This document shows, piece after piece, positions 7,975 through 60,280 of a DNA stretch of 64,000 nt. Below the pieces are notes generated by a model, which saw only the letters and a list, made by a program, of their open reading frames with translations, was not told where the DNA came from and made no database searches. How positions within the stretch are numbered: the first letter of the stretch is position 1; each line of letters begins with the position of its first letter. This DNA is from an uncultured Acidobacteriota bacterium. GTDB lineage: Bacteria; Acidobacteriota; Thermoanaerobaculia; UBA5066. The stretch spans positions 134,751 to 198,750 of the forward strand of contig CAWCSP010000004.1 in NCBI GenBank assembly GCA_963798215.1, given 5' to 3'. The position numbers and the translations under genes were made by a program.

Positions 7975-8664
7975 GTGATCCTGTTCGAGAACGAAGACGT
8001 CCTCGCGCTGGACAAGCCGCCGGGCGTCTCGATGGCGACGTCCTCGCGGCCGGGTTCGGCCCTGGAGGCCGTGCGCCGCCTCCTCGCGGCGTGCGGGGTC
8101 GCGGAACCGCAGCCGCTCCCGCTCCTCGTCCACCGGCTGGACGTCGGGACGAGCGGCGTCGTCCTTCTCGCGAAGAGCGACGCGGCTCACCGGGCGCTCT
8201 CTCGCGCCTTTCAGGAGCGGACGGCGAAGAAGACCTATCGCGCGCTCGTGTGGGGTCACCCCGTCCCGGTGCGCGGCACGATCGACCTCGCGCTCGCCCG
8301 CGACCCGAAGGACGGCCGGAAGATGCGCGTCGCGAAGGACGGGAAGCCCTCGGTCACGGCTTACGAGACGCTGATGCGTGTCCCCTCGCTCGCCGACATG
8401 AGGCTCTCGCCGGAGACGGGGAGGACGCACCAGATCCGTGTCCACCTCTCCGCGAAGGGGCACCCGATCGCCGGTGACGATTTCTACGGCGGCGCGACGC
8501 GCTGGCGAGGCATCCGCGACGCGGCGCTGCGCGCGGCGCTGCAGCGCCTCACGCACCCGCTCCTCCACGCCGAGCGGATCGTGATTCCGGAAATGGGAAT
8601 CGACGTGGACGCGCCTCTGCCGCCGGACTTCGAGGAGATCAGGAGGATTTGCTTAGAAAGGTGA
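7975..8664 (+). CDS. rluA: RluA-family 23S/tRNA pseudouridine synthase
   Basis: GTG start. Catalytic HRLDxxTSG motif (VHRLDVGTSGVVLLAK) and the TGRTHQIRVH motif. The 3' end (ICLER*) is encoded by the left arm of repeat copy A. Confidence 0.8.
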   Translation: MILFENEDVLALDKPPGVSMATSSRPGSALEAVRRLLAACGVAEPQPLPLLVHRLDVGTSGVVLLAKSDAAHRALSRAFQERTAKKTYRALVWGHPVPVRGTIDLALARDPKDGRKMRVAKDGKPSVTAYETLMRVPSLADMRLSPETGRTHQIRVHLSAKGHPIAGDDFYGGATRWRGIRDAALRAALQRLTHPLLHAERIVIPEMGIDVDAPLPPDFEEIRRICLER

Positions 8665-8700
8665 ATGAGAGAGGAGCCCTATTCACCTTCTAAGAAAAGC
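8647..8700. repeat. Palindromic MITE/REP-like element, copy A (54 bp, minimal form)
   Basis: Left arm ATTTGCTTAGAAAGGTGAAT and right arm ATTCACCTTCTAAGAAAAGC form a near-perfect inverted repeat around a 14-bp core. Lies between convergent rluA and lhr. Confidence 0.7.
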
Positions 8701-8747: not shown

Positions 8748-11700
8748 TCAGAGGGCCCGCCAGACCAGCTTCCCGAGGTCCCGCGTAAACGCGATCGCTT
8801 CGAGGAGCGGAGCGAGCGGGGCGCTCGCGGCGGGCCGGGCGTTCACGCTCGAAACCGCCAGCCGGCGCGGCCGTCCGAGGGGATCGCGCGAGCGCCGGAC
8901 GAGGTCCTGAAGGGCGCCGAGGGCGGCCCTGAGCGTCCGGTCCGTCGCCGTGGCGGCGGTCTCGAGCGCGCCCGCGCCGTCGAGCGAGAAGAGGACCTCG
9001 CCGCCCGCGAGCGCGACCCAGCCATCGCGCGCGTCGAGCCCCTCGAGGACGGGGTCGGCCGCGCCCGCCACGGCGAGGGCGGGCTCGTCGCCCGACGGGC
9101 GCTCGACCCGGCGCAGGGTCTCGACGGTCTCCTCGTCGGCGTACTGGACCGGACCGCGCCCCTCGAGGAACTCGCCGCGGCGGAGGTCGCCGCGCATCTC
9201 CATGCGCGCGAAGACGGGCGCGACGTCCGGCCAGCGGATGAGAGAGGCGTCCTCGCGCTCGAGCGTCGCGCGCGACACGACGCCCCAGCGAGCGAGAAGA
9301 AGCCGCGCCCACGCCTCGGCGCGCTCGTCCGCTCGCAACGGCTCGCCGGCGACGCCGGGGGAGTCGAGGAGCGACCACCTGCCCGAGGGGAGTGAAGAGG
9401 GAGCCGAGAGAGAAGACCGGGGATTTCTTGGAAGGTGAATAGGGCCCGGGGAAAGTTGCGGGCTCGCGAGGCGCGCGGAGACTCTCCTCTCGGCGTCGCG
9501 CAGCGCCTGCCGGGAGGGCCGCACACCCTCCGGGTGCAGCGCGGCCGCCGCCCCCTGAGACGCAGCTGTCACGCGCCTTCTAAGCAATATCTCTCTGAAT
9601 CCCTGTATTCCGTCGCCCGTGACCAGCCCTGCCAGAACGAGCTCGACGACGGCTCTTGCGAGCGCGGGCTCCACGCCGCGCTCGCCGCGCGCGACGAGGT
9701 CCGACAGGAAGGACGCGCCGGAGACGGCGAGCTTCCCGTAGAGCTCGCGGGCCGCAGGCGAGAGGCCGTTGAGCGCGGCGACGCCCGGGGGCAGGAGAAC
9801 CGCGCCCTCGCCCCGGAAGAAGAACGACAGCCGCGCGGCGCGCGGGTTCTTGACGCCCTCGGCTCGCCAGACGAGGAGTCCGCGCGCCGACAGGACGTCC
9901 AGCGCGTCGGGCTCCGGCGCCGCGAGACGCGCCGGAAGGAGCGAGGCCTCCCACGCGAGCGCGGGCAACGCCAGGCCCCGCAGGAGGCCGACGGCGCGCT
10001 CGGCCGCGTTCGGGCCCGCGAAACGCGCGCCGAGGGCGACGCCCTGGCGCGTCGCGAGGAACGCCCGGTACGCGGCGAGCGGCACCGGGCGGATCTCGTG
10101 CCGGAGGATCCCGAGCGACTTCCGCCGGACGTTCTCGGCGAGGCGCGCGCCCGCCCAGCGCAACGCCCCGTCCGGCGCGCCGAAGCGCGCGCGGACGACA
10201 AGCGCGTCGAGCCGCAGCGCCTCGAGGGCGGCCTCGACCTGCACCGCCGGGACGCCGTAACGCGCGGTGAACTCCGAGACGAGCGCGGGGCCCCTTGTCG
10301 CGAAGAACCGGAGGACGATCCGCTCCAGAGGCGAGGGGGCCGCCGACCCACTCGAGGCGACGCCGTGCACGGGGAAGGGGCGTTGAAGATCTTCTTCGAA
10401 TGCACGTGAGGGCGGTGGGGCGACCGAAGCCGGATCGCCGCGTCGGTCGGCGCCGCCCTTGTCGAGGGTGCGGCCGAGGGCGGAATTCCAAAGGTCCACC
10501 TCCTCCGCGGCGACGAACCTCCATTCACCTTCTAAGCAAAGCGCCATGACGCTCTGCCGCGCCACCAGCTCGTCGAGCCACGTCTTCCCCTCTCCGGAGC
10601 AGCGTTCTTCGATCTCGTCTTTGGTCAGGTCTCCAAGCTCCTGGAAGAACGAGAGAAGCTCGTCCGCCGTCCGCGCCATGCGCTGCGGGACGAGGCGCGA
10701 GGCCTCGGCGCGCGCGGCATCGGCGGCCTCCGGCTTCAGGGCGTCGGGCAGCGTCTCGCCGAGCACCTCGCCGAGAAGCTCGCGGTTCATCGCGAGCGCG
10801 TGGATCCCGCGCTCGGCCTTCGGCGCGTCCCACTCGTACAGGTACGCCGCGACGAAGTTGAAGAGGAGCGACTGCGCGGCCGGCGACGGGAGCTTCCGCG
10901 CGTCGACCGTCCGGCCGACGCCGCCGGAGGCGAGGTCGTCGAGGAGCCGGAAGAGGCGGTCCGTCTCCCAGACGTCGCGCAGGCAGTCGCGGTACGTCTC
11001 GGCGACGATCGGGAAATCCGGGAGGCCGCGCGTCGTCTGGAGGAGGTCGCGCGCGCGCATGCGCTGCAGCCAGAACGGCGTCCGCTTTCCCGACCGGGCG
11101 CGCGGGAGGAGGAGCGCGCGCTGGGCGTTCTCGCGGAAGCGCGCCCCGAAGAGCGCGGAGTTCGGAAGGTCGGCAAGGAGGCGTTCGCGGGCCTCGCCGG
11201 ACGTCAGGCGCGCGAGACGCTCCAGCGGCACCTCGCGCTCGGCGCGCGGGAGGCGCAGGAGGATCCCGTCGTCCGTCGCGACGGCCTCCGCCTCGACGCC
11301 CGTCTGCTCGGAGAGGATGCCGGCCAGCGCGAGCGACCACGGGACGTTCACGCCTTTCCCGAAGAGCGAGCGTACGACGACGCACGGGTCGCCGAGCTCG
11401 TTCGGGAACGTCTCGAAGACGACGAGCGTGTCGGAGGCGACGCCCGGCGACTCGAACGCTTCCCGGCGGATCCCCGCGACGAGCGCAGCGGCCGCGTCGG
11501 GGTCGCAGCCGTAGCGCGCATGCAGGAAGTCCGGCAGCGCGGGGTCGTCGAGGCGCTCCGCGATCGTCCGCTTGAGCCGCCCGACGCGCGCGGCGAGCTT
11601 CGCCGTCCGGCCGAGGCCCTCGCCCCGCCAGAAGGGCATCTTCGCGGGCGCGCCCGCGGCGTCCTCGACGACGACGCGGTCGTGGTGGATGTCGATCGCG

Positions 11701-13328
11701 CGCCAGGCGCGCGAGCCGAGGAGGAAGACGTCGCCCGTCCGCGTCTCGTGGACGAACTCCTCGTCGAGGTCGCCGACGACCGTCCGCCCGTCGCGAAGGA
11801 CGGCCTTGTACGCGCCGCGGTCCCCGATCGTCCCGCCGTCGAGGAGGGCCGCGAGGCGCGCCGCGGGCAGGGCCGAGACGCGGTCCGTCGCGCGGTCCCA
11901 GACGAGCTTGGGAGCGAGCGCGGCGAAGCGCTCCTTCGGGTACTTGCCCGAGAGCATCGCAAGCGTCTCGACGAAGAGCGTCTTCGGGAGCGCGCGGTAC
12001 GGCGCCGCGCGCCGGAACGTCGCGAGGAGCCCGGCGGACGTCGGCGCGTCCGCCCCGCGCCCGACGACCTCGGCGACGATCTGCTGCGCGAGGACGTCGA
12101 GCGGAAACTGGGGCGGGCGCGTCTCCTCGACGTCGCCTTCCCGCATGGCCTCGACCGTCGCGGCGCACTCGAGGACGTCGTCGAAAAAGAGCGGCACGAA
12201 ACGCCCGCGCGAGGCCTGTCCCACGAGGTGGCCGGAGCGGCCCACGCGCTGGAGGGCGCGGGCGACGCCCTTCGGACTGCCGAGCTGGACGACGGAGTCG
12301 ATCTCGCCGACGTCGAGCCCGAGCTCGAGGGAGCCCGTCGCGACGAGGACGCGCAGGGCGCCGGCCTTGAGATCGCGCTCGACCTCCTCGCGCACGGCGC
12401 GCGCGACCGAGCCGTGGTGCGTCGGGACGGACCTGCCGAGCTTCTCCTCCAGCTTCGCGGCGACGCGCTCGGCCTGGCGCCGGTTGTTGCAGAAGACGAG
12501 CGTCGTGCGCCGGAGCGCGGCCTCGGCCGCGATCGCCTCGACCGCCGCTCCCCAGGGCGAGTCGTCGCTCGAGTGATCGGCGTCGCCCTTCGGCGAGAGG
12601 ACGGCGAGGTCGAGCTCCTTTCGTGCCGGGACGACGAGCGCCTCGACCGCGTGCGCGCCGCCCACGAACGCGGCCACCTCCGCGACGGGCTCGACCGTCG
12701 CCGAGAGCGCGACGCGCTGCGGGGGCTTCCCGCCGGCTGCGCGGACGACGTCCTCGAGGCGCTCCAGGGACAGCGCGAGGTGCGCGCCGCGCTTGCCGCC
12801 CGCGACCGAGTGAATCTCGTCGAGGATCACGGTCTTGACCGTCCCGAGGAGGCCCCGGCCCGCACCGGTCAGTAGGAGGTACAGCGACTCGGGCGTCGTG
12901 ATGAGGATGTCGGGCGGCCGCCGCAACTGTTCGCGCCGCGCCGACTGGGGCGTATCGCCCGTCCGGACGGCCGCGGTGACCGAGGGCGCCGGTCCGCCGC
13001 CGGAAGCGGCGAGCGCGCGCGCGACTCCGGCGCGGGGGCGCTCGAGATTGCGCGCGATGTCGTTATCGAGCGCCTTGAGCGGCGAGACGTAGAGAACCGA
13101 CAGGGACGGCTCGCAGTCGCCCGCGAGCTTCCGCCGGACGATCCCGTCGAGCCCGACGAGGAACGCGGCGAGAGTCTTCCCGGTACCGGTCGGCGAGACG
13201 AGAAGGACGTTCGCGCCTGCGGCGATGCGCGGCCACGCGAGCCGCTGCGCGGCGGTGGGCCCGTCCGGGAACTCGGCGCGGAACCACCCGGCAACGGCGG
13301 GATGGAACAGGCCGGCGGCGTCGTCCAC
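8748..13328 (-). CDS. lhr: Lhr-family ATP-dependent DNA helicase (large helicase-related protein)
   Basis: 1526 aa. N-terminal SF2 motifs (GTGKT, DEIH, helicase C). The C-terminal Lhr-CTD signature ends in LLLARWGVVSR...LRRGEFLEGRGPVQYA. The size is typical of Lhr. Confidence 0.85.
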   Translation of the reverse strand: MDDAAGLFHPAVAGWFRAEFPDGPTAAQRLAWPRIAAGANVLLVSPTGTGKTLAAFLVGLDGIVRRKLAGDCEPSLSVLYVSPLKALDNDIARNLERPRAGVARALAASGGGPAPSVTAAVRTGDTPQSARREQLRRPPDILITTPESLYLLLTGAGRGLLGTVKTVILDEIHSVAGGKRGAHLALSLERLEDVVRAAGGKPPQRVALSATVEPVAEVAAFVGGAHAVEALVVPARKELDLAVLSPKGDADHSSDDSPWGAAVEAIAAEAALRRTTLVFCNNRRQAERVAAKLEEKLGRSVPTHHGSVARAVREEVERDLKAGALRVLVATGSLELGLDVGEIDSVVQLGSPKGVARALQRVGRSGHLVGQASRGRFVPLFFDDVLECAATVEAMREGDVEETRPPQFPLDVLAQQIVAEVVGRGADAPTSAGLLATFRRAAPYRALPKTLFVETLAMLSGKYPKERFAALAPKLVWDRATDRVSALPAARLAALLDGGTIGDRGAYKAVLRDGRTVVGDLDEEFVHETRTGDVFLLGSRAWRAIDIHHDRVVVEDAAGAPAKMPFWRGEGLGRTAKLAARVGRLKRTIAERLDDPALPDFLHARYGCDPDAAAALVAGIRREAFESPGVASDTLVVFETFPNELGDPCVVVRSLFGKGVNVPWSLALAGILSEQTGVEAEAVATDDGILLRLPRAEREVPLERLARLTSGEARERLLADLPNSALFGARFRENAQRALLLPRARSGKRTPFWLQRMRARDLLQTTRGLPDFPIVAETYRDCLRDVWETDRLFRLLDDLASGGVGRTVDARKLPSPAAQSLLFNFVAAYLYEWDAPKAERGIHALAMNRELLGEVLGETLPDALKPEAADAARAEASRLVPQRMARTADELLSFFQELGDLTKDEIEERCSGEGKTWLDELVARQSVMALCLEGEWRFVAAEEVDLWNSALGRTLDKGGADRRGDPASVAPPPSRAFEEDLQRPFPVHGVASSGSAAPSPLERIVLRFFATRGPALVSEFTARYGVPAVQVEAALEALRLDALVVRARFGAPDGALRWAGARLAENVRRKSLGILRHEIRPVPLAAYRAFLATRQGVALGARFAGPNAAERAVGLLRGLALPALAWEASLLPARLAAPEPDALDVLSARGLLVWRAEGVKNPRAARLSFFFRGEGAVLLPPGVAALNGLSPAARELYGKLAVSGASFLSDLVARGERGVEPALARAVVELVLAGLVTGDGIQGFREILLRRRVTAASQGAAAALHPEGVRPSRQALRDAERRVSARLASPQLSPGPIHLPRNPRSSLSAPSSLPSGRWSLLDSPGVAGEPLRADERAEAWARLLLARWGVVSRATLEREDASLIRWPDVAPVFARMEMRGDLRRGEFLEGRGPVQYADEETVETLRRVERPSGDEPALAVAGAADPVLEGLDARDGWVALAGGEVLFSLDGAGALETAATATDRTLRAALGALQDLVRRSRDPLGRPRRLAVSSVNARPAASAPLAPLLEAIAFTRDLGKLVWRAL
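9423..9590. repeat. Palindromic element copy B (~168 bp), embedded in-frame in the lhr coding sequence
   Basis: Left arm ATTTCTTGGAAGGTGAATAGGGCCCGGGG and right arm CGCCTTCTAAGCAATAT. The GAAGGTGAAT(A/G)GGGCCCGGGG block is shared with copy F. On the minus strand it translates as ...REILLRRRVTAASQGAAAALHPEGVRPSRQALRDAERRVSARLASPQLSPGPIHLPRNP... in a linker between conserved Lhr-CTD blocks. Confidence 0.6.
10486..10541. repeat. Palindromic element copy C (partial or degenerate, right arm clear), in-frame in lhr
   Basis: Right arm CATTCACCTTCTAAGCAAAGC at 10521-10541. The left arm is degenerate (GGAATTCCAAAGGTCCACC). Translated within Lhr as ...SVMALCLEGEWRFVAAEEVDLWNS... Confidence 0.4.
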
Positions 13329-20033: not shown

Positions 20034-20531
20034 TTGAAGGCACGGCGGAACGGATCGCGGGGCTTCACGCTGATCGAGCTGCTGATCGTCGTCGCGATCA
20101 TCGGGATCATCGTCGCGATCTCCGTCGTGAACATGATCAACGCGATCCAGCGCGCCAAGCAGAAGCGCTCGATGGCCGACATCCGGAGCCTCTCGTCGGC
20201 GCTCGAGGCGTACGCGGCGGACATGAATACCTACCCGGCCGCGGCGGGGTACACGCTGCCGACGGGCCTCTCGCTCCCGACCGGCTCGTTCGGCGCGGCC
20301 GCAGGGCAGCTGAGCCCGACGTACATCCGCGTCGCGCCCCTCCAGGACGGCTGGAACTCCTGGTACCTCTACGGGACGAGCGCCACGCGGACGGATTACG
20401 CCGTGTGCTCGGCTGGCGCCGACGGCGCTCCGCAGTCGTCCCCGTCCTTCGGTCCGACGACCGATTTCAACGCGGACATCATCCTCGTGGACGGCGCGTT
20501 CGTGCAGTTCCCCGACGGGGCCCAGCGCTGA
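20034..20531 (+). CDS. pilA: Type IV pilin / prepilin-type N-terminal cleavage-methylation protein (PilA-like), paralog 1
   Basis: TTG start after an AAAGAGG RBS. Class III signal ...NGSRG|FTLIELLIVVAIIGIIVAI, with the conserved +5 Glu. 165 aa. Confidence 0.8.
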   Translation: MKARRNGSRGFTLIELLIVVAIIGIIVAISVVNMINAIQRAKQKRSMADIRSLSSALEAYAADMNTYPAAAGYTLPTGLSLPTGSFGAAAGQLSPTYIRVAPLQDGWNSWYLYGTSATRTDYAVCSAGADGAPQSSPSFGPTTDFNADIILVDGAFVQFPDGAQR

Positions 20532-20701: not shown

Positions 20702-21205
20702 ATGAAGAGGAACCGAAAGGGTTTCACGCTCATCGAGCTGCTGATCGTCGTTGCGATCATCGGAATCATCGTCGCGATCGCCATTCCGAACCTGCTCAAC
20801 GCGATCCAGCGCGCCAAGCAGAAGAGGTCCATGGCCGACATGCGCTCGGCCGGTACGGCCGCCGAGGCGTATGCCGTCGACTTCAACCACTACCCTGCGG
20901 CGGCGGGCTACTCGCTTCCGTCGGGCCTGACCGTCCCCACGGGGACGTTTGGTGCCGTGGGTTCGGGCTTCAACAAGCAGGTTGCTCCCACGTACATCCG
21001 CCTCCTTCCGATCACGGACGGCTGGCAGTCGTACTTCCTGTACGGCAACAACGGCGCAGGCAACGCGACGGCCTACGTGATCATGTCGAACGGGAAAGAC
21101 GGCACCGCAGGCACGCTCGTCGGCGGCGAGACGACGAACTTCAACGACGACATCGTCTTCACGAACGGCCAGTTCGTTCAGTACCCCGCGGGCGCGCAGC
21201 GGTAA
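20702..21205 (+). CDS. pilA: Type IV pilin (PilA-like), paralog 2
   Basis: ATG after a GGAGG RBS. MKRNRKG|FTLIELLIVVAIIGIIVAIAIPNLLNAIQRAKQKRSMADMRS. The C-terminus (FVQYPAGAQR) parallels paralog 1 (FVQFPDGAQR). 167 aa. Confidence 0.8.
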   Translation: MKRNRKGFTLIELLIVVAIIGIIVAIAIPNLLNAIQRAKQKRSMADMRSAGTAAEAYAVDFNHYPAAAGYSLPSGLTVPTGTFGAVGSGFNKQVAPTYIRLLPITDGWQSYFLYGNNGAGNATAYVIMSNGKDGTAGTLVGGETTNFNDDIVFTNGQFVQYPAGAQR

Positions 21206-26554: not shown

Positions 26555-27679
26555 TCAGCCCGGCGCGGGCGCCCCGGACGACGGGCGGGCGGCGGTCTTC
26601 GCCCGCTTCTCGACGAGTCCCTTGAACTGGTCCTTGTCGAGCGACTTCTCGTAGGCCTCGTCGGGCTCGACGATGCCGGCGACGACGAGGTCCGCGAGGC
26701 TCTGGTCCATCCCGATCATCCCGGACGTGCGGCCGGTCTGGATGAGCGTCCCGATCATCGCGGTCTTGCCCTCGCGGATGTTGTTCGAGAGCGCGGACGA
26801 CCCGCGGAGCACCTCGAACGCCGCGACGCGCCCGCCGCCCTTCTTCTTGAGGAGGACCTGCGCGACGACGCCCTTGAGGACCTCGGCGAGCACCGTCCGC
26901 ACCTGCTCCTGCTCCTCGGCGGGAAAGCTGTCGATCAGCCGGTCGACGGCCTTCGCGGCGGAATTCGTGTGCAGCGTCCCGAAGACGAGAAGCCCCGTCT
27001 CGGCGGCCTGGAGGGCCATGGACATCGTCTCGAGATCTCGCAGCTCGCCGACGAGGACGACGTCCGGGTCCTCGCGGAGCGCGGCCTTCAGGGCGCCCGC
27101 GAACGTCGGGGTGTCGAACCCGAGCTCGCGATGCGAGATGAGGGACTTGTTCGGTCGGTGGAGGAACTCGACCGGGTCCTCGATCGTGACGATGTGGGAG
27201 GCGCGCGTGCGGTTGATCCAGTCGAGGAGCGCCGCGAGCGTCGTCGACTTGCCCGAGCCCGTCGGCCCGGTCACGAGGACGAGGCCGCGCGGGATCCGCG
27301 CGACGTTCGCGACGAGCGGCGGGAGGCCGAGCTCCTCGATCGCGAGGACGCGCGGCGGGATCATGCGGAGGACGGCTCCGGAGCCGTGCTCCTGGCGGAA
27401 CAGGTTCACGCGGAAGCGCGCGATCTCGCCCATCGCGTACGCGAAGTCCGTGTCGCCCGTATTGCGCCACTCGCGGAGCGGCTTCTCCGGCGCGATCGGG
27501 ACGATCAGGCTCTCGTACTCCTCCTCGGTCAGCGTCCGCCACTTGAGGCGTTCGAGGTCGCCGTCCACGCGCACCATGGGCGGCGAGCCGACGGCGAGGT
27601 GCAGGTCCGACGCCTTCTTGTCGACCATGATCCTGAGGAGCTTGTCGACGCGGTTGACGCCGGCGTGGAGCGAGCTCAT
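26555..27679 (-). CDS. pilT: Type IV pilus twitching-motility retraction ATPase PilT
   Basis: 374 aa. Walker A (GPTGSGKST), Asp box (ITIEDPVEF), Walker B (LVGELRD), His box (GTLHTNSAAKAVDRL), and the AIRNLIRE-like motif (ALSNNIREGK). Confidence 0.9.
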   Translation of the reverse strand: MSSLHAGVNRVDKLLRIMVDKKASDLHLAVGSPPMVRVDGDLERLKWRTLTEEEYESLIVPIAPEKPLREWRNTGDTDFAYAMGEIARFRVNLFRQEHGSGAVLRMIPPRVLAIEELGLPPLVANVARIPRGLVLVTGPTGSGKSTTLAALLDWINRTRASHIVTIEDPVEFLHRPNKSLISHRELGFDTPTFAGALKAALREDPDVVLVGELRDLETMSMALQAAETGLLVFGTLHTNSAAKAVDRLIDSFPAEEQEQVRTVLAEVLKGVVAQVLLKKKGGGRVAAFEVLRGSSALSNNIREGKTAMIGTLIQTGRTSGMIGMDQSLADLVVAGIVEPDEAYEKSLDKDQFKGLVEKRAKTAARPSSGAPAPG

Positions 27680-30198
27680 TCGAGGGCCTGCCTTTCCTCG
27701 GCGACCATCTTCTCGAACGGCTCCTTCTTGACGGCCTTCTCCATCGCGAGCTCCGGGTCCACCTTCCCCTCCTCGCAGAGCTTCAGGAGGGACTGGTCCA
27801 TCGTGCACATCCCGGCGAGCTGGCCGGTCTGGAGCGCGGACGGGATCTGGTGCGTCTTGCCCTCGCGGATCAGCGCCGCGACCGCGGCCGTCGTCCGGAG
27901 GATCTCGAACGCGGCGATGCGCCCTTCGAAGCCGCGCCGCGGGAGGAGCGCCTGCGAGATGACGGCCTTCAGGGAGTCCGCGAGCATGACGCGGATCTGT
28001 CCCTGCTGGCCGGGCGGGAACGAGCTGATGACGCGGTCGACGGTCGCGGGCGCGTTCGTCGTGTGGAGCGTCCCGAGGACGAGGTGGCCCGTCTCGGACG
28101 CCGTGATCGCGAGGGAGATCGTCTCGAGGTCGCGCATCTCGCCCACGAGGATGACGTCGGGGTCCTCGCGCAGCGCGGCCTTGAGGGCGCGCGCGAAGGA
28201 GGCCGTGTGGTGCGGCACCTGCCGCTGGTTCACGAGCGCCTCCTTGTTCGCGTGGACGAACTCGACCGGGTCCTCGACCGTGATGATGTGGCAGGGCCGC
28301 GTCTCGTTGATCCGGTCGATGAGCGCCGCGAGCGTCGTGGACTTGCCGCAGCCCGACGGCCCCGTCACGAGGACGAGCCCCTGGGTGAGCTTCATGATGT
28401 CCGCGACGGTCGCGGGCGGGAGGCCGATCTCCTCGATCGTCGGGACCGTCCTCGGGACGACGCGGAAGCACGCGTCGAACCCCCCGCGCTGCGAGAAGAA
28501 GTTCGCGCGGAACCGGCCGAGGCCGGGGAGCTTCAGGCAGACGTCGATCTGGCGCTCCCGCTCGAGGCGCTTCCAGTCGTCCTCCGGGAGGACTTCCCGG
28601 ATGAGCTGCGAGGCGCGGGCGCGCGTCATGACGGGGGCGTCCACGGGCTCGAGCGCGCCCTGCTGCCGCCGGTGCGGGACGAACCCGGTCGCGAGGTGGA
28701 GGTCCGAGGCGCCCCTCTTGACCGTGTCCGCGAGGTACTCGACGAGCCGGGCCGAGTCGTTCCCCGCGAGGTCGACCGTCTGGACCTCGGCCTCGACCTC
28801 GGGCAGCGCGTCGCGCGCCTCGGTCCCCTTGAGGACGCCGACGAGCCGGCGGGCCTTCTCGCGCACCTTGCCGTCGAGAGCGGGCATCTGGGACACGCGC
28901 GAGCAGATCCCCGCGATCTGGGTCTGCATCTTCTCGTCGGTCGCGAGCTTCGCCATCGCGTCGAGGATCTCCATCTGGACGTCCGGCTGCGTGACGGCGG
29001 CCTTGAACGCGTCGAGGAGCGGCTGCGCGGCCCGGGGGTCGCCGAGGTCGCCGAGCGCGGACGCGGCCGGGATCGCGAGCTCCGGGTCGCGGATGGCCGA
29101 AAGGAGGCGCGCGAGGACGGCGTCGTCGCCCTTGCCGAGGCGGCCGAGCGTCTCGACCGCGCGCGTCCTCACCCAGATGTCCTTGTCGTCGACGAGGGAG
29201 ATCCAGATCGGAAGCGCCTTGGCGTCGGCGAGGGCGAGCGTCATTTCGGAAGCCGCTTTGGCGAGTGCGGGATCGGCGTCGCGCGTGAGCTTCAGGAGCG
29301 CGTTCACGAAGCCGGGGAGGCCGTCCCGGGCGGTCTCGACGGCGCGGTCGCGCACCCAGACGAACGAGCCGCGGAAGTGCTCGAGGATCCGCCGGGCGAG
29401 GAGGTCAGGCGCGTAGGGCAGGAGGAGGCCGACCGTGCCGGTCCTCACCAGCGCGTTCCCGTCCGCGAGGAGCGGGACGATCTCGGACGTGTGGTCCTGC
29501 TTGGCCGAGAGGAGGAGCTTCTTGAGCGCCGCGAAAGACGCCTCCATGACGCGCCCGCCGGCGGTCCGGGCCATCTGGAGGACGTCGGGGAAGTAGCTCT
29601 CGTTCGGGTTCTTCTCGAGGACCGCGAGGGCCGAGAACCGGATCTCCTCGTTCTCGTCCTGCAGGAGCGGAACCGCGAGGCTCGCCGCGACGTCCGCGCT
29701 CCCCTCGAAGGACATCTCGCTGACGGCCTTCAGGGCCCGGGCGCGCACCGCCGGGTTCGAGGCGGTCAGGACGCGCCGCGCGATGTCGAACGCCGTCTGC
29801 GCCGGCAGCTCGCGCGCGAGCTCGAGGGCCGCGAGGCGGGCGAAGTCGTCTCCGCGCGACGCGATCTCCTGGAGGAACGGCGGGAGCTGGGGGCCCGCGA
29901 GGTCCTTCAGGAAACGCATGACGGCCCGCCGCACGGCCTCCGACCGCGTCTTGAGCATCGGCACGAGCGCCTCGAGTCCCGCCCGGTCGTGCCGCCTCTT
30001 GAGGATCGCGAGACCGGCGGCGCGGATCTCGGGGACCTGGTCGACGGCGGTCCACGCGACCCATTCGACGTCCGGCTTCGAGAGCGACTGGAACTTCTCG
30101 AGGAGGCCGTTCCGCTGTTCCTCGCTCGACCATTTGTGCTCGCGGAGCTGCGCGACGAACGCCGGCTCGGATCGAAGAGAGCGCAGCTTCTCTAACAC
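27676..30198 (-). CDS. PilT/PilU-family ATPase with ~470-aa N-terminal HEAT/PBS-lyase-type repeat domain (fusion)
   Basis: 840 aa, GTG start. Residues ~1-470 form repeated alpha-helical HEAT-like units (e.g. DKDIWVRTRAVETLGRLG, DPELAIPAASALGDLGDPRAAQPLLDAFK). The C-terminus carries a full PilT ATPase core (GPSGCGKST, ITVEDPVEF, LVGEMRD, GTLHT). No PilB-type tetracysteine motif. ATGA overlap with pilT. Confidence 0.8.
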   Translation of the reverse strand: MLEKLRSLRSEPAFVAQLREHKWSSEEQRNGLLEKFQSLSKPDVEWVAWTAVDQVPEIRAAGLAILKRRHDRAGLEALVPMLKTRSEAVRRAVMRFLKDLAGPQLPPFLQEIASRGDDFARLAALELARELPAQTAFDIARRVLTASNPAVRARALKAVSEMSFEGSADVAASLAVPLLQDENEEIRFSALAVLEKNPNESYFPDVLQMARTAGGRVMEASFAALKKLLLSAKQDHTSEIVPLLADGNALVRTGTVGLLLPYAPDLLARRILEHFRGSFVWVRDRAVETARDGLPGFVNALLKLTRDADPALAKAASEMTLALADAKALPIWISLVDDKDIWVRTRAVETLGRLGKGDDAVLARLLSAIRDPELAIPAASALGDLGDPRAAQPLLDAFKAAVTQPDVQMEILDAMAKLATDEKMQTQIAGICSRVSQMPALDGKVREKARRLVGVLKGTEARDALPEVEAEVQTVDLAGNDSARLVEYLADTVKRGASDLHLATGFVPHRRQQGALEPVDAPVMTRARASQLIREVLPEDDWKRLERERQIDVCLKLPGLGRFRANFFSQRGGFDACFRVVPRTVPTIEEIGLPPATVADIMKLTQGLVLVTGPSGCGKSTTLAALIDRINETRPCHIITVEDPVEFVHANKEALVNQRQVPHHTASFARALKAALREDPDVILVGEMRDLETISLAITASETGHLVLGTLHTTNAPATVDRVISSFPPGQQGQIRVMLADSLKAVISQALLPRRGFEGRIAAFEILRTTAAVAALIREGKTHQIPSALQTGQLAGMCTMDQSLLKLCEEGKVDPELAMEKAVKKEPFEKMVAEERQALE

Positions 30199-33057: not shown

Positions 33058-33723
33058 ATGAACGAACGCGGCAGCGCCCTCGTCTCGGTCATCCTCGTCC
33101 TCCTCGTCCTCACGATCGTGGGCGTCGGGATCGCGTACTTCACGTCGATGGAGGACCGCCTCTCGGGCAACACCCGCATCGCGAAGGCGGCCTTCTACGC
33201 CGCGGACGCGGGCCTCCGCCGGGCCGAGCTCGCCCTGAGCGACACGGCGGGGCTCAAGAGCGCGTGCACGCCGATCACGCTCACGCAGATTCTCAGCACG
33301 GGCGCGACCCCGACGCTGAGCGTGCCGGGCGGCGGCAACCCCGCGATCCCGCTCGACCTCACGGGAGCGGCGTTCACGCAGGCGGACTGTCTTCCGGCCA
33401 CGGACCAGATCAACTACCTCGGCATTCCGGTCCCGGTGGTCGCCGCGACGCCGGTCGTCGACCGTGCGACGTACTCGATCTACGTGCGGAACAACATCGA
33501 CGACGCGTCCGGCTCGGCGACGCTCGACAGCGACAGCATGATCAACATCGTGTCGGTCGGAACGATCCAGCTCGTGGCCGGCACCTCGGTCACGCGCATC
33601 CTCGAGGAGCAGCTGCTCCTGTCGCCGGGCGGCTCGTTCGGCGGCACGCAGAAGGGCCTCGAGGCGGGGGGCACCAACGCCGTGCAGAGCGGACAGAGGG
33701 GCCTGAACGCGGGGAACCCATGA
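33058..33723 (+). CDS. pilX: PilX-like minor pilin (PilX N-terminal domain)
   Basis: [38 protein letters not shown] matches the PilX_N consensus (MxxxRGxALVxxLLxLxVLTxxG). Confidence 0.7.
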
Positions 33724-36700
33724 CGACGAAGCGGCTTCCCTTCCGCATTCCCGGGTGGCTCCGGCGCGCCTGCGCCGTCTTCCTGCTCGGCGTGATGGCC
33801 TTCGGCGGCGCCGGGTCCGCGCGGGCGGCCGCGACCGAAGGGTACGACCCTCTCCGGCAGATCACGGCCCAGGTCCTCCGCGCGAACCTCCTGATCCTGC
33901 AGGACCTCAGCGGGTCGATGAAGTGGGATCTCTACCAGGACCAGCTTCTCGAGGCAGAAGACTCGACCGGCCGCCTCGTCTGGATGAGCACGTGCGTCGG
34001 GCCCAACCCGGGGCCGACGCCGACGCCGACGGCGACGCCGACGCCGACGGTGACCCCGACGGTGACGCCGACGGCCACGAACACGGCGACGGCCACGCCG
34101 ACGGCCACGAGCACGTTCACGGTGACGCCGACGGCCACGACCACGAACACGCCGACCCAGACGTACACGGTGACGCCGACCACGACGCCGACGCCCACGG
34201 ACACGGCCACGGTGACGCCGACGGCGACGCCGACGGCGACGTTCACGGCCACGCCGACCGTCACGAACACGCCGACGAATACGCCGACGACGACGGCGAC
34301 CCCCACGCCCACGGACACGAAGACGATCACGCCGACGCCGACGCCGACGGTCACGCCGACGGTCACGCCGACGGTCACGATCACGCCGACGGTGACGAAC
34401 ACGCCGACGGTCACGAAGACCTTCACGCCGACGATCACGCCGACGATCACGCCCACGCCGACGGTCACGCCCACGGTCACGATCACGCCGACGAAGACGC
34501 CGACGGTCACGCCGACGAAGACGCCGACGGTGACGAAGACGCCGACGAAGACGCCCACGCGGACGCCCACGATCCCGCCGACGAGCACCTACACGGCCAC
34601 GGTGACGCCGACGGCGACGAAGACGCCGACGATCACGCCGACGGTGACGCCGACGAGTGACGCCGACGATCACGCCGACGGCGACGATCACGCCGACGAT
34701 CACGCCGACGGCGACGCCGACGATCACGCCGACGCGGACGCCGACGTCGACGAACACGCCGACGGTCACGCCGACGTTCACGCCGACGATCACGCCGACG
34801 AGGACGCCGACGGTGACGCCCACGGTGACGCCGACGATCACGCCGACGCCGACGATCACGCCGACGGCGACGCCGACGCCGACGAAGACGTTCACGCCGA
34901 CGATCACGCCGACGGCGACGGTGACGCCGACGGTGACGCCGACGGCGACGAGGACGTTCACGCCGACGTTCACGGCGACGAAGACGTTCACGCCGACGAC
35001 GACTCCGACGATCACGCCGACGATCACGAACACGGCGACGCCTTCCCCGACGGTGACGCCGACGGCCACGAAGACGTCGACGCCGACCGTGCCGTCGCCG
35101 ACGCCGACGGCGACCGTGACACCTACCAAGACGCCCACCGCAACCGTGACGCCGACGGAGAAGGTCGATCTGGAGCTGCCGCGGAACCCGCTCGTCAGGC
35201 CCGGCGGAGCGCTCGAGGAGCGCTGGGCATCCGCCCAGCCGCTCGCGACGCCGGCGCCGAAGTGGGGCCTCCCGCAGCCGGTCGCCGTCGTCGCGATGGG
35301 CGGCGGGGCGGCCGCCCAGTTCGGCATCGCCGCGCTGCTCGTGCAGGCGACGCCGACGCCGACGCCGTGGCCGACGGACCCGTCGACCGGCCTTCCGGAC
35401 GCGGGCTGCCACCAGTGGCGCTACACGCTCCACTGGGACCGCCCGTCGCGCCTCGCGACGCTCAAGAACGCCCTCGGCAACTCCGTGACGATCTACAAGA
35501 ACTTCACGGCGCCGGGCGGCGGAGCGCAGGCCGACTGGCCGGACCCGATCGTGCACAGCATCGACTGGACCGGGGCGCCGAACGCCGGGCGCGTGGAACT
35601 ACGCGTCGCCGCCCGCGGCCGCGGGAACGACGTTCGCCTACGACCACGACTGCGACGACCCGGTCAAGGGCCCGGCATGCGGTTCGCTCCCGCAGGTGGG
35701 CCCCGACGAGAAGCCCGGCATCTGGTACGAGGCCGGCTACGTCGCGCGCGTCCTCGTCGGTGGCCCCTCGTGGGACTACCCGAACCACTACGGTTCCCCT
35801 GGGCCGCCCCGGATCTCCGCGGCCACGGACCCGCAGGGCGTCGTCGTCGACTGGCAGTGGACGCTGAACTACGGCTACGGCCCGAACAACGAGGTCATCT
35901 ACGGCCTCGACCCCGGACCGCCCCTGCCTGTCTACGACATGACGACCGACGTGGGCGGCGCGTTTACGGGCTTCGACGGCGGGTCGATCCCCGGAATCAC
36001 GGGCACGCCGCTCGACTTCCCGAGCACATGGTTGACGTTGGGCGGGCTCGCGATCGGCGATCCGCCGGCCACCGGTCCCGGCACCGGCGGCGCCAACCAG
36101 CCCACGTGGAGTACATCCCTGCCGGCGGACGTCGTCGGGATCACGCGGAACCAGGTCAACTGGGGCCTCATGACGTTCCAGGACAAGTCCGCGCTCCCGA
36201 ACCCGCTGGCCTGCACGGACGACGTCTCGAACTACGACGTCAAGGTGCCGATCGTGTCGGACGACTCGGGCGACGTCTCCGCGATCGAGGACTACCTGCG
36301 CCTGAAGTACCAGTCTGGCGGCCCGCATCCGGGCCTGTCCGCGAGCGGCGGCACGCCCACGAAGCGCGCGATCAAGCTCGCGGGCGACAGCATCACGACC
36401 TCGTGGAACGCCGACCCGAAGAAACAGTGCCTCCGGCCGTGGGGCATCATCCTCTGCACGGACGGGCAGTCGAACACGTGCAACACGGGCAGCCCGTCGG
36501 CCGACGACGTATGGGGAGCGAACGGAAACCCGGCCTGCGAGGCCGACATCGCCGGGAGCGACTATCTGAACTACCCGCCGGGGGCCGCGGAGGCCGTCTA
36601 CAACCTGAGGCTGCAGTTCGGCGCGGGTGACATCATCAAGCCGCGCACGTACGCGATCGGGATCGCGCCCGAGGTCGGCCGCTGCGAGCTGGACCGCATC

Positions 36701-50371: not shown

Positions 50372-50476
50372 GATTTCTTCGAGTATGAGAAATCGCGCGG
50401 TGCAGGCGATGCCGACGCGCAGCCGGCACGAGCACGGCTCCGGCTTCCCCCTCCGACCCCTTCTAAGAAATCTCCC
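50372..50476. repeat. Palindromic element copy D (~105 bp) in the pccB-accC intergenic region
   Basis: Left arm GATTTCTTCGAGTATGAGAAATC (divergent) and right arm CCCCTTCTAAGAAATCTCC. Confidence 0.5.
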
Positions 50477-53843: not shown

Positions 53844-53937
53844 ATTTTCTTAGAAAGGTGTGCGAAGCCGGAGCGGGTGCTTCGCCGGCGCTCGCGAGCA
53901 CCGCCGGTGCGCCGCCCTCTTCACCTTCTAAGAAGTC
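53844..53937. repeat. Palindromic element copy E (94 bp) between convergent genes
   Basis: Left arm ATTTTCTTAGAAAGGTG and right arm CTTCACCTTCTAAGAAGTC, with a GC-rich palindromic interior. Confidence 0.65.
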
Positions 53938-60167: not shown

Positions 60168-60280
60168 ACGGTCTGCAAATTTCTTCGAAGGTGAATGGGG
60201 CCCGGGGCGCGCCGGTGCGCCGCATCCGCGCCGGGGCGGCGCACCACGCCGAGACGCTCCTTCACCCTTCTAAGAAAATC
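60168..60280. repeat. Palindromic element copy F (113 bp) in the 5' region of lptD
   Basis: Left arm AATTTCTTCGAAGGTGAATGGGGCCCGGGG and right arm CTCCTTCACCCTTCTAAGAAAATC. The interior is related to copy B. Confidence 0.65.

Follow-up and report, generated by a model that had tools for sequence, protein, structure and literature searches.

A paired repeat motif read in frame within the lhr helicase gene of a Thermoanaerobaculia lineage

The lhr gene and the repeat family in the window

The window (the whole 64-kb stretch of DNA that was analyzed, 72% GC) carries a large open reading frame (ORF) that was assigned by using the ORF list, its translation, Pfam, and its match to Mycobacterium smegmatis (Msm) Lhr:

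8748-13328, minus strand: lhr gene, 1526 aa, intact and uninterrupted

DEAD, Helicase_C, WH_Lhr, DEAD_assoc, and WH2/WH3/WH4_Lhr domains were found in the 1526-aa ORF by using Pfam (only WH3 fell below the cut-off). The protein has the architecture that characterizes Lhr, namely an Lhr-Core followed by a C-terminal domain of winged-helix modules (WH2-WH4), and residues 842-1467 of Msm Lhr (7LHL) were aligned to it (C-terminal domain E = 9e-43). By domain content and homology, this ORF is identified as Lhr, a DNA-repair helicase. A preliminary description of the locus had placed repeat elements in frame and free of stop codons within the intact 1526-aa ORF; the ORF list and the translation agree with this, and the translations that it quoted were exact. 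The stop-free C-terminal region of lhr was also present in the orthologs of L002-L006, L017, and L023. As the description had cautioned, stop-free passage is weak evidence (p about 0.38 for 56 codons at 72% GC, from base composition).

The repeat family in the window is real and non-random. CCTTCTAAGCAA with at most 2 mismatches was matched 11 times in the window compared to 0.65 matches expected, a count that was reached by 0 of 100 shuffles. The family was detected by pattern search and mismatch scans; owing to the shortness of its arms, it escaped a general repeat finder applied to the entire window. Its motif is an AT-rich sequence of approximately 17-20 nt, T-TTTCTT(A/C)GAAGGTGAAT-Gggg, with the arms arranged as convergent (inverted) pairs. 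Within lhr, the 17-mer core TTTCTTAGAAGGTGAAT was located at 9424-9440 (1 mismatch), 10523-10539 (1 mismatch), and 9571-9587 (4 mismatches); outside lhr it was located at 8681-8697 (0 mismatches), 53919-53935 (2 mismatches), and 60180-60196 (1 mismatch). Four of the six elements are intergenic, in a small fraction of the DNA, and the remaining two both lie within lhr. The intergenic copies (strand not applicable) are as follows:

8647-8700: copy A, a pair of approximately 54 bp with the convergent rluA-like gene and lhr on either side
50373-50471: copy D, a pair of approximately 97 bp upstream of the gene starting at 50495, with no stop-free coding frame spanning the pair
53845-53937: copy E, a pair of approximately 90 bp, from pattern and frame scans
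60179-60279: copy F, a pair of approximately 98 bp upstream of a putative lipoprotein gene, with no coding frame common to both flanks

The lhr arms form pair B (9571-9587 and 9424-9440) and pair C (10523-10539 and a degenerate arm at 10389-10406). In coding order, the features of the two pairs are as follows:

10515-10547, minus strand: arm C5' (core 10523-10539), mRNA sense TTGCTTAGAAGGTGAAT, peptide MALCLEGEWRF, 1 mismatch to the 17-mer
10476-10520, minus strand: C inter-arm segment, RFVAAEEVDLWNSAL, ancestral Lhr coding sequence
10344-10475, minus strand: C insertion, clade-specific, 41-44 aa (GRTLDK...VASSGS) at the WH2/WH3 junction, containing arm C3'
10389-10406, minus strand: arm C3' (degenerate), CGT GCA TTC GAA GAA GAT (RAFEED), plus strand TCTTCTTCGAATGCACG, with an A/T-codon patch at 10374-10421
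9564-9614, minus strand: arm B5' (core 9571-9587), mRNA sense TTGCTTAGAAGGCGCGT, peptide DGIQGFREILLRRRVTA, on ancestral codons
9468-9521, minus strand: interior of B, RPSRQALRDAERRVSARL, ancestral Lhr sequence that reads PSRPALRAAEARVASRLG in arm-free sister-clade orthologs
9387-9452, minus strand: arm B3' (core 9424-9440) with a pyrimidine tract, peptide SPGPIHLPRNPRSSLSAPSSLP, the inserted part of B, 1 mismatch

Codons ending in A or T make up 8.3% of all lhr codons, and stretches with at least 4 of 7 such codons were found only at 10515-10547, 10374-10421, 9564-9614, and 9393-9458. Given that these four patches coincide with the four repeat arms, they provide an independent check on the arms in lhr. 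Arm B5' has CGC in place of the TGA of the canonical arm and also lacks GGTGA. Arm B3' and the left arm of copy F are alike over approximately 30 nt, beyond the core and including GGGCCCGGGG.

The limits given in the preliminary description were revised for both pairs. Copy B, placed at 9423-9590, does have arms at both ends, but its purine- and pyrimidine-rich flanks extend the element to about 9385-9612. For copy C, the arm at 10523-10539 was retained, whereas the left limit at 10486 was not (the residues encoded by 10486-10502 are conserved but the DNA is not conserved in relatives), and the true partner, the degenerate arm at 10389-10406, had been overlooked. The placement of element B between conserved blocks was supported: it probably lies in an interdomain loop and aligns to loop aa 1251-1276 of the Msm Lhr C-terminal domain, which is disordered in the cryo-EM structure (PMC8053096). 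An AF2 model of the C-terminal domain was of low confidence overall (mean pLDDT 53.5) because its alignment held only 12 sequences, and only its locally confident WH2 part was used, in which arm C5' falls in the WH2 beta-hairpin rather than in a loop (pLDDT 85-88). C-terminal-domain residues 151-186 (the C insertion) had a pLDDT < 50 and are predicted to be disordered.

Ancestral and inserted sequence among relatives

Sampling comprised the one 64-kb window, flanks of approximately 20 kb from nine MAGs, and approximately 50 metagenome contigs. The clade I set consisted of nine Thermoanaerobaculia genomes (L001/L012, L002-L007, L017, and L023) with 60-81% aa identity. Element density was approximately 1 per 10-30 kb across approximately 250 kb of clade I DNA, and the window had approximately 11 half-sites per 64 kb, with fewer in other clade I flanks.

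The arms sit at identical codons in 9/9 clade I genomes and are therefore ancient. No arms were found in approximately 247 kb of loci from the sister clade (approximately 53% identity), and Msm Lhr is also arm-free. On these alignments, all four lhr arms are placed in the common ancestor of the clade I lineage, before at least nine species-level lineages diverged. Unlike the positions in lhr, the intergenic copies vary between relatives, and L007 and L023 lack copy A at the orthologous site.

The preliminary description had proposed insertion in the manner of Rickettsia palindromic elements (RPEs), with a clean indel of approximately 56 aa at the element ends. Ortholog alignment instead gave an indel of 41 aa next to C and one of about 14-35 aa downstream in B, and this extra sequence holds only the downstream arms. 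The alignments to sister-clade and Msm Lhr are ungapped over the two upstream arms, over the interior of B, and over part of the C interior. Insertion across copy C was thus contradicted by arm-free orthologs (sister clade, 7LHL) that are homologous without an indel (ALCLEGEWRFVAAEE vs RVRVAGEERLVAAEE). Arm C5' aligns in this way over ancestral codons, and RFVAAEEVDLWNSAL has gap-free homologs in the sister clade (RLVAAEERPLWEAL) and in Msm Lhr (WWAAVEDIGLL). Across the upstream boundary and interior of B there was likewise no indel (FREILLRRR vs LRELLRAKR, and RPSRQALRDAERRVSARL vs PSRPALRAAEARVASRLG). Arm B5' itself reads ATT CTT CTT AGA AGG CGC in clade I and CTC CTC CGG GCG AAG CGC in the same columns of the sister clade, and was aligned to RAVLSGPRR of Msm Lhr.

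The extra sequence has its own history within the clade. The C insertion is missing from the sister clade and Msm Lhr, and from L004 and L005 by secondary loss; the extra residues of arm B3' are missing from the sister clade and from L003. Insertions holding the downstream arms underwent three independent secondary losses among clade I lineages. The interior of B is deleted in L005 and L012. Lineages that lost the 3' arm kept the 5' arm, and, taking lhr and murE together, conserved solo arms lacking a partner persist in L003, L004, L005, and L159-L161.

The preliminary description had named homology across the element boundaries in arm-free orthologs, with no indel, as the observation that would count against insertion, and this is largely what was found. 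The part of its proposal that stands is that the downstream arms lie in lineage-specific extra residues and that the family occurs in frame elsewhere; the part that does not concerns the upstream arms and the interior of B, which are ancestral. Given that only half of the lhr arms look like insertions, the elements are only partly like the in-frame palindromic elements of Rickettsia.

Constraint on the arms and the family beyond lhr

In arm C5', TTA GAA GGT GAA is identical in 7/9 clade I genomes (the exceptions being TTC for TTA in L023 and GAG for the last GAA in L006), neighboring synonymous sites vary, and the arm was the top window for codon identity among the windows scored. In arm C3', xTC GAA GAA is invariant across every insertion-bearing clade I genome, with a codon identity of 0.97 and 65% A/T third positions. 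The rare A/T-ending codons are 70-78% conserved within arms compared to 14-37% elsewhere, and arm windows came first when codon identity and A/T third positions were scored jointly. This conservation of rare codons points to nucleotide-level purifying selection on the arms.

The center of TTC-NNN-GAA is variable (TTA, TGA, TAA, TTC, TTG), with no compensating change in the partner arm, and the folding energies predicted for B (window and two relatives) were not better than those of shuffled sequences (z = 0.38, -1.45, and 0.79). Nothing was matched at the Rfam gathering threshold. As judged from these comparisons, the constraint acts on sequence rather than on pairing. This bears on an RNA-level element, which might form hairpins in lhr mRNA or intergenic transcripts, pause ribosomes at domain boundaries through the Shine-Dalgarno-like GAAGGUGA of the upstream arm, or provide sRNA targets. 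The paired arms are able to base-pair, GAAGGTGA is one base away from GGAGGTGA, and the change from TTA to TTC in C5' of L023 improves pairing with C3'. Besides the folding, central-base, and Rfam results, the retention of 5' arms where the 3' arm was lost and the missing GGTGA of B5' argue against such an element, which we consider very improbable. A sub-threshold Rfam CRISPR-DR match at 9688-9727 (E = 0.59) was dismissed as chance.

Inverted repeats that bound 130-150-bp segments within a coding region could also be the recombinase sites of an intragenic inverton that flips the enclosed segment and recodes Lhr. Flipping of B or C gives 2 stop codons in the window, flipping of B gives 2 in L023, a single orientation was found in all aligned clade I assemblies, and the interior is collinear with arm-free orthologs. 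A switch would not fit into intergenic copies whose interior spans 14 nt. This reading was rejected based upon the stop codons and the single orientation, and it has next to no probability in our estimation.

Beyond lhr, in-frame copies of the family were found in similar metagenomic contigs in murE, uvrD/pcrA, dnaX, and the gene of a rhodanese protein. Of the 120 metagenome matches, about 70 on lower-GC contigs were set aside as chance 16-mer matches; selecting the contigs by exact motif match biases the logo within the 17-mer. Intragenic status was determined by using a GC3 frame test calibrated on the lhr arms of the window, and 7 of 37 evaluable copies (about 19%) were in frame in ORFs, with most others intergenic. 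The murE arm GGT TTC TTC TTA GAA GGT GAA was found in Thermoanaerobaculia MurE whether or not insertions were present. Outgroup murE reads TTC TCT CTC GAG GGG (FSLEGH) at the same site, so the arm overlies an ancestral motif, as do the lhr upstream arms.

Arms were almost always found in convergent pairs with a preferred spacing (pair sizes 45-290 bp, mode about 96 bp, preferred about 92-101 bp). The information content of the arm is limited to about 20 nt, and the interiors of copies are GC-rich and unrelated (similarity 0.62 vs 0.60 for shuffles). No direct repeats indicative of a target-site duplication were seen in the listed flanks of any of 28 complete pairs, and reading of the arm lists by eye revealed no arm pair 0.4-3 kb apart that enclosed a transposase-like ORF. 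No trans-acting factor, transposase, or RAYT gene was noticed beside any copy within the approximately 20-kb flanks and short contigs. An extended arm consensus (GACCGGGGA, GA/TC tracts) was apparent in some copies and was not general. A likeness of GAAGGTGAAT to IS5 ends with a TTAG target duplication was dropped given that the flanks are inverted rather than direct. The reverse arm presumably resembles the 3' end of 16S rRNA. A literature search with the motif string returned unrelated primers only, and the literature search found no acidobacterial description of the repeat family.

These properties can be set against two simpler accounts. In the first, the ancestor of the clade acquired two complete elements of RPE- or MITE-like selfish DNA by transposition into lhr loops, and these remain undecayed and functionless, with the ancestral resemblance an alignment artifact. 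The inverted ends, the preferred size, the mostly intergenic locations, and the differences in intergenic copies between relatives are consistent with this, as are the downstream arms that do sit in inserted sequence. In-frame fusions are known from RPEs (PMC10969869), and the in-frame share of evaluable copies can be compared to the about 10% of prokaryotic MITEs that are not intergenic (PMC11602168). This account is opposed by the upstream arms and interiors, which have gap-free counterparts in sister-clade and M. smegmatis Lhr, by the murE arm on ancestral FSLEG, and by the conservation of rare A/T-ending arm codons far above background at 60-81% aa identity. The sample also held no target-site duplication, shared interiors, or autonomous element, and we regard selfish DNA as an unlikely explanation.

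In the second account, the motif is an immobile genomic signal, resembling DNA uptake sequences (DUS) or the binding sites of a chromosome-organizing protein, that accumulated in situ through point substitutions driven by selection or biased fixation, and the nearby indels reflect ordinary turnover of disordered linkers. Upstream arms that arose in situ (twice in lhr and in murE) where the amino acids were already compatible argue for it, as do the deeply conserved arm positions, the conservation of about 20 nt only with unrelated interiors of variable length, the persistence of solo arms, and hosts that include the genome-maintenance genes lhr, uvrD/pcrA, and dnaX. Neisserial uptake sequences form inverted intergenic pairs and are biased toward repair genes. 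The low density (about one element per 10-30 kb), the location of 4/6 window elements in intergenic DNA and of both coding ones in one gene, the pairing of nearly all arms at a preferred spacing, and the likeness of arm B3' and copy F past the core all count against it. No sign of a cognate binding protein or of competence was seen, and origin wholly in place likewise seems improbable to us.

A proposed account and its relation to known systems

Within the relatives sampled, the family is conserved only in its motif of approximately 17-20 nt and belongs to one Thermoanaerobaculia lineage, and by translation the lhr arms are read through within full-length Lhr. The account that we propose is of an ancient paired motif with two origins, the arms of which were kept as recognition sites; we consider it about evenly poised between right and wrong. 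The downstream arms would have arrived with extra DNA that lengthened interdomain loops (by 41 aa at the WH2/WH3 junction and by about 20 aa in the B loop), which would be the RPE-like part. Transposition may have brought them in, or the motif may have evolved after ordinary linker indels. The upstream arms would have been overwritten on existing codons by substitution only, with protein length unchanged. The conversion of approximately 12/24 nt toward the consensus is much for selection alone, and a templated process may have been involved. The motif would serve for sequence-specific recognition, most probably by a putative DNA-binding protein whose target combines the dyad TTC-N3-GAA with GGTGAAT. 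Nucleotide-level purifying selection would maintain it, and it would be tolerated in the few stop-free frames (FLEGE, LLRRR, IHLLRK, and FEE).

That the 17-nt core TTTCTT(A/C)GAAGGTGAAT is a functional genomic signal (a protein binding site or a signal of the uptake/segregation type), beyond a selfish repeat end, is a possibility that we hold tentatively. If this were true, the motif could be written into essential genes by substitution (lhr WH2, the lhr linker, and murE FSLEG), synonymous sites would have been held over class-level evolutionary time, and the 'palindromic elements' would be pairs of such sites. Half of the arms appear to be built over ancestral codons, once in a folded beta-hairpin, and rare A/T-ending codons are kept across species in two unrelated genes. 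This is a pattern that selfish insertion alone does not readily explain and that points to an unrecognized sequence-specific system. For annotation, such A/T-rich patches should not be taken as recent insertions, pseudogenization, or assembly errors.

Like MITEs, the acidobacterial copies have terminal inverted repeats, a small size (45-290 bp), and a non-coding, mostly intergenic character; unlike MITEs, they had no target-site duplication, interior homology, or parent IS in the sample. REP/BIME/REPIN sequences share the short motif, inverted pairs, poorly conserved spacers, location mostly at gene ends and between convergent genes, and roughly hundreds of copies per genome. However, the acidobacterial arm forms no stable hairpin by itself, just the TTC-N3-GAA dyad, and its motif has no GTAG or CGTC tag; no RAYT was seen in the approximately 20-kb flanks and short contigs. 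The acidobacterial arms also occur inside coding sequence (7/37 evaluable copies and both lhr pairs) and are conserved there. DUS/USS are similar in that the motif arises in place in permissive coding frames, is conserved at orthologous positions across species, forms inverted pairs downstream of genes, and is present in DNA-repair genes. The acidobacterial motif differs in being much sparser, strongly intergenic, and paired at a preferred spacing.

RPEs are palindromic repeats that form in-frame fusions and are translated as an extra peptide in places that the protein tolerates (PMC10969869). Both families consist of short palindromic repeats that are intergenic and also in frame in unrelated housekeeping genes, here lhr, murE, uvrD/pcrA, and dnaX, and the acidobacterial downstream arms similarly add 41 and about 20 residues to Lhr interdomain loops. 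The acidobacterial family differs in its host, an unrelated lineage of 72% GC, and in its unrelated sequence, and about 20 nt per end are conserved here compared to a whole RPE of approximately 100-150 bp with a conserved peptide. Furthermore, the upstream arms and interiors in lhr are ancestral coding sequence rather than inserted, and the acidobacterial arms are nucleotide-constrained over deep divergence. To our knowledge, the textbook case of in-frame palindromic repeats is found only in Rickettsia. A comparable family in an uncultured acidobacterial class that is free-living and GC-rich means that the phenomenon is not restricted to reductive AT-rich genomes.

Repeat family in the window and in metagenome contigs

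Within the window (72% GC), the 12-mer CCTTCTAAGCAA was matched 11 times at ≤ 2 mismatches, against 0.65 matches expected from shuffles. The 17-mer TTTCTTAGAAGGTGAAT or its complement was found with 0–2 mismatches at 8681, 9424, 10523, 53919, and 60180, and with 4 mismatches at 9571, 50454, and 60261. Six elements (convergent pairs of these AT-rich arms) were present, two inside the Lhr helicase gene lhr (copies B and C) and four intergenic:

8647–8700, copy A, intergenic pair
50373–50471, copy D, intergenic pair
53845–53937, copy E, intergenic pair
60179–60279, copy F, intergenic pair

The lhr gene (8748–13328, minus strand) is an uninterrupted ORF of 1526 aa with the full Lhr set in Pfam (DEAD, Helicase_C, WH_Lhr, DEAD_assoc, WH2_Lhr, a weak WH3_Lhr, and WH4_Lhr), and its C-terminal 717 aa were matched by residues 842–1467 of Mycobacterium smegmatis Lhr (PDB 7LHL; E = 9e-43). 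Codons ending in A/T make up 8.3% of lhr. A composition scan that did not use the motif recovered only four patches with ≥ 4/7 A/T-ending codons, coinciding with four arms in two convergent pairs (5′ and 3′ denote upstream and downstream in the lhr mRNA):

10515–10547, minus strand, arm C5′ patch (core 10523–10539)
10374–10421, minus strand, arm C3′ patch with a degenerate arm at 10389–10406, read RAFEED
9564–9614, minus strand, arm B5′ patch (17-mer at 9571, 4 mismatches)
9393–9458, minus strand, arm B3′ patch (17-mer at 9424)

The preliminary description was right to read copies B and C in frame in an intact ORF, and the peptides that it quoted were exact. It had recognised three of the four arms; the partner of C5′ is 10389–10406 and not the stretch at 10486, and the span of element C was corrected to 10389–10539.

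The six copies have their ends in common and nothing else, and a match of ~30 nt was seen between arm B3′ and copy F. Copy A was not found at the orthologous intergenic spot in two arm-bearing relatives (L007 and L023), which indicates that intergenic copies turn over. The upstream rluA-like gene (ORF 7975–8664, plus strand) takes its last ~6 codons and its TGA stop from copy A; the C-terminus reads ...EEIRRICLER and the stop (8662–8664) lies within AAGGTGA. In L007, this gene ends without the element and its two convergent genes nearly abut. Beyond the rluA cluster, arms sharing a similar left flank (GCTGCGCTCGCC..TTTCTTCGAAGGGT) were found in two distant arm-bearing genomes, L007 (13228–13392) and L012 (17293–17309, equivalent to L001 16580–16596); searching the window at ≤ 4 mismatches gave no counterpart. 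The reverse arm ATTCACCTTCTAAGAAA (all arms, e.g., 8681–8697) may resemble the 16S rRNA 3′ end and spacer start (GATCACCTCCTTTCTAAGGA), and the forward arm holds a Shine-Dalgarno-like GAAGGTGA; the window carries no rRNA gene.

Metagenome contigs scanned for exact matches to TTCTTMGAAGGTGAAT gave at least 120 loci. Among the matches listed, the wider motif was present in ~50 loci on contigs of ≥ 62% GC, roughly half of them with a convergent partner ≤ 400 nt away at ≤ 5 mismatches; complete pairs were 45–290 bp long, clustered at 90–101 bp, and showed no visible target-site duplication. Information in a logo of 75 arms was confined to about T + 17-mer + G(ggg), and the interiors of the 90–101-bp class were no more alike than shuffled controls (0.62 vs 0.60). 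A frame test based on GC3 and stop codons, calibrated on the window, classed the copies among the matches listed as intergenic (30), in-frame intragenic (7), or uninformative (12). Intragenic copies use only frames without the motif's TAG, TGA, and TAA.

Proteins hosting in-frame copies
MurE: in-frame pair, peptide FFLEGEE...PFTFEED
UvrD/PcrA: in frame, linker between UvrD_C and Tudor domain, peptide ILLEGGE...SPSKN
DnaX: in frame, after domain III, peptide NSPSKK
Rhodanese protein: in-frame intragenic host

Elsewhere in the window, ~1.1 kb of 12/18-nt periodic repeats (33945–35100) is translated as a Thr-Pro repeat (TPTxTPTx...). Near 34630–34660, TPT passes from one to the other of two overlapping plus-strand ORFs (33264–35867 and 34657–36630), suggesting that the repeat contains a frameshift or an assembly error. 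Tandemly duplicated genes are suggested by two further sets of direct repeats in tandem (26763–27314 vs 27854–28408, spacing ~1094 nt; 20060–20374 vs 20719–21045, spacing ~660 nt), which are 73–88% identical.

Arm ancestry in lhr and murE

Orthologues were collected by searching proteins and scanning GTDB species representatives. The window fell within Thermoanaerobaculia (Acidobacteriota), and the 36 Lhr loci obtained form two groups. Clade I comprises loci with 60–81% aa identity in the C-terminal domain (L001=L012, L002, L003, L004, L005, L006, L007, L017, and L023), and the sister clade II (~53% identity) includes MAGs labelled Holophagales and Thermoanaerobaculia. The motif was at identical codons in every clade I genome, and no arm was found in the clade II loci (~247 kb scanned in total).

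Insertion of whole elements, as first proposed, had led to the expectation of a clean indel at the element ends relative to arm-free orthologues. None was seen: repeat-free orthologues have homologous residues across "copy C" and the greater part of "copy B," and only the downstream portions differ in length. In the clade I codon alignment, arm C5′ reads (Y)TT TYC TTA GAA GGT GAA, with TTA GAA GGT GAA invariant in seven of nine species (exceptions L023, TTC, and L006, GAG); clade II has GTC GCG GGC GAG GAG in these columns. The length between the conserved flanks is equal in both clades (...SVMALCLEGEWRFVAAEE vs ...SVLRVRIAGEERLVAAEE), and M. smegmatis Lhr is also ungapped here. Arm B5′ (GAG ATT CTT CTT AGA AGG CGC, EILLRRR) is aligned without indel to GAG CTC CTC CGG GCG AAG CGC (ELLRAKR) in clade II, and the middle of copy B, encoding RPSRQALRDAERRVSARL, is kept as PSRPALRAAEARVASRLG in that arm-free clade. 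The genuine length differences are a 41–44-aa segment adjoining C (10344–10475), which carries arm C3′, and an additional 14–35 residues where B ends downstream (9387–9452), consisting of arm B3′ and a TCT-rich tract read as poly-Ser.

Neighbour-joining of clade I (547 ungapped columns) gave (WIN,L023)+((L005,L003),(L004,(L017,(L006,L002)))), where WIN is the window. On this topology, the absence of the C insertion from L004 and L005 and of B3′ from L003 represents three independent secondary deletions, and the clade I ancestor therefore already had all four arms. Upstream arms were lost in no clade I lineage. By this comparison, the lhr arms are ancient rather than recent. In L001/L012 (7508–11410), lhr was called as several fragments with a tblastn frame change near site C, and Lhr is likewise truncated or frameshifted in database relatives P0016, P0017, and P0020; these are probably long-read assembly errors, not biology.

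The same pattern was found in murE, where the 17-mer is in frame at these positions:

L159, 3777–3793
L160, 3777–3793
L161, ~3777
L066, 2435–2607

All Thermoanaerobaculia-named MurE orthologues (65–100% identity) have GFFLEGEEG. Two insertions are variably present in them, an Ala-rich one that follows this motif and, farther along, one reading PFTFEE(D/N).... The downstream arm is missing from three short forms, whose DNA nevertheless reads GGT TTC TTC TTA/TTG GAA GGT GAA GAG GG. At the arm site, an outgroup (L162, 62% identity) has the GC-rich TTC TCT CTC GAG GGG CAC (FSLEGH), E. coli MurE has FSMEGH, and the alignment with solved MurE proteins runs through this site. Given the outgroup motif and the arm in the short forms, the upstream arm covers a motif that is ancestral, and it is conserved independently.

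Nucleotide-level constraint and structural context

Across clade I (8–9 sequences), the same codon was used in 64% of same-amino-acid pairs and 17% of third positions were A/T. The top-ranked of all five-codon windows scored were LCLEG and ALCLE (100% codon identity, 58–78% A/T third positions) and FEEDL (97% and 65%). For three reference species, an A/T-ending codon was kept in other species in 70–78% of cases inside arms vs 14–37% outside, and codons neighbouring the arms varied freely. These codon patterns point to selection on the DNA or RNA sequence of the arms, not the peptide. A purine-rich patch ~50 nt upstream of C5′ (10578–10628, EIEERCSGEGK) also has many A/T-ending codons; its counterpart in L002/L017/L006/L005/L003 (GAA AGA TCT GCT GAA GAG GG) is almost invariant, and the patch may represent another nucleotide element under constraint.

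The middle triplet of TTC-NNN-GAA varies (TTA, TGA, TAA, TTC, TTG), and neither within lhr nor in intergenic pairs does the partner arm show a compensatory substitution; by reading of the pair list, intergenic pairs with differing centres outnumber those with agreeing ones. Predicted folds of B were no more stable than shuffles. For both reasons, this does not look like selection for arm-arm pairing. No known RNA family matched the element.

By HMMER alignment, B lies opposite M. smegmatis Lhr residues ~1248–1290; in the cryo-EM structure of that C-terminal domain, aa 1251–1276 form a disordered surface loop (PMC8053096). An AlphaFold2 model of the C-terminal domain (12-sequence alignment) was poor overall (mean pLDDT 53.5), with WH2 confidently modelled (pLDDT 77–88) and the C insertion (residues 151–186) and most of B below 50. 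The loop placement proposed earlier would accordingly suit B and the C insertion; C5′ is predicted to encode a strand-turn-strand of the WH2 wing (C-terminal-domain residues 118–131), in a folded, ancestral domain.

Origin of the arms and comparison with palindromic elements

Pure insertion of a Rickettsia palindromic element (RPE) or MITE would account for a ~20-nt motif in mostly convergent pairs with unrelated interiors, for the mostly intergenic location with turnover, and for coding downstream arms that came with deletable loop sequence, but is a misfit for upstream arms that cover ancestral codons at unchanged length in three independent places, for synonymous sites held over deep divergence, and for the lack of arm covariation. 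These last features, and the missing interior homology, are what would be expected of a motif that is purely a signal and evolves in situ; such a motif is hard to reconcile, however, with how sparse the elements are, how strongly they favour intergenic sites, their pairing at a preferred spacing, and the B3′–copy F match. Since neither fits all the facts, a hybrid is favoured, namely a REP/MITE-like palindromic repeat with a ~17-nt core as putative sequence-specific recognition site. The TTC-N3-GAA dyad suggests recognition by a dimeric DNA-binding protein. Under the hybrid reading, downstream arms would have entered lhr loops together with extra DNA and upstream arms would have been selected in place, all four presumably now being fixed, translated parts of Lhr. 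About 12 of 24 nt changed toward consensus at the upstream arms, which may have been made either by stepwise selection or by some templated conversion. Inversion switching of the element was excluded for the window.

The RPE-like behaviour originally described, in frame and probably in loops, applies to one half of every element and to the family overall, and fails for a clean end-to-end indel and a recent age. The main point of interest is that arms in lhr and murE apparently arose in place and are conserved at synonymous sites; the family is new, and among in-frame palindromic repeats it is an unusual variant.
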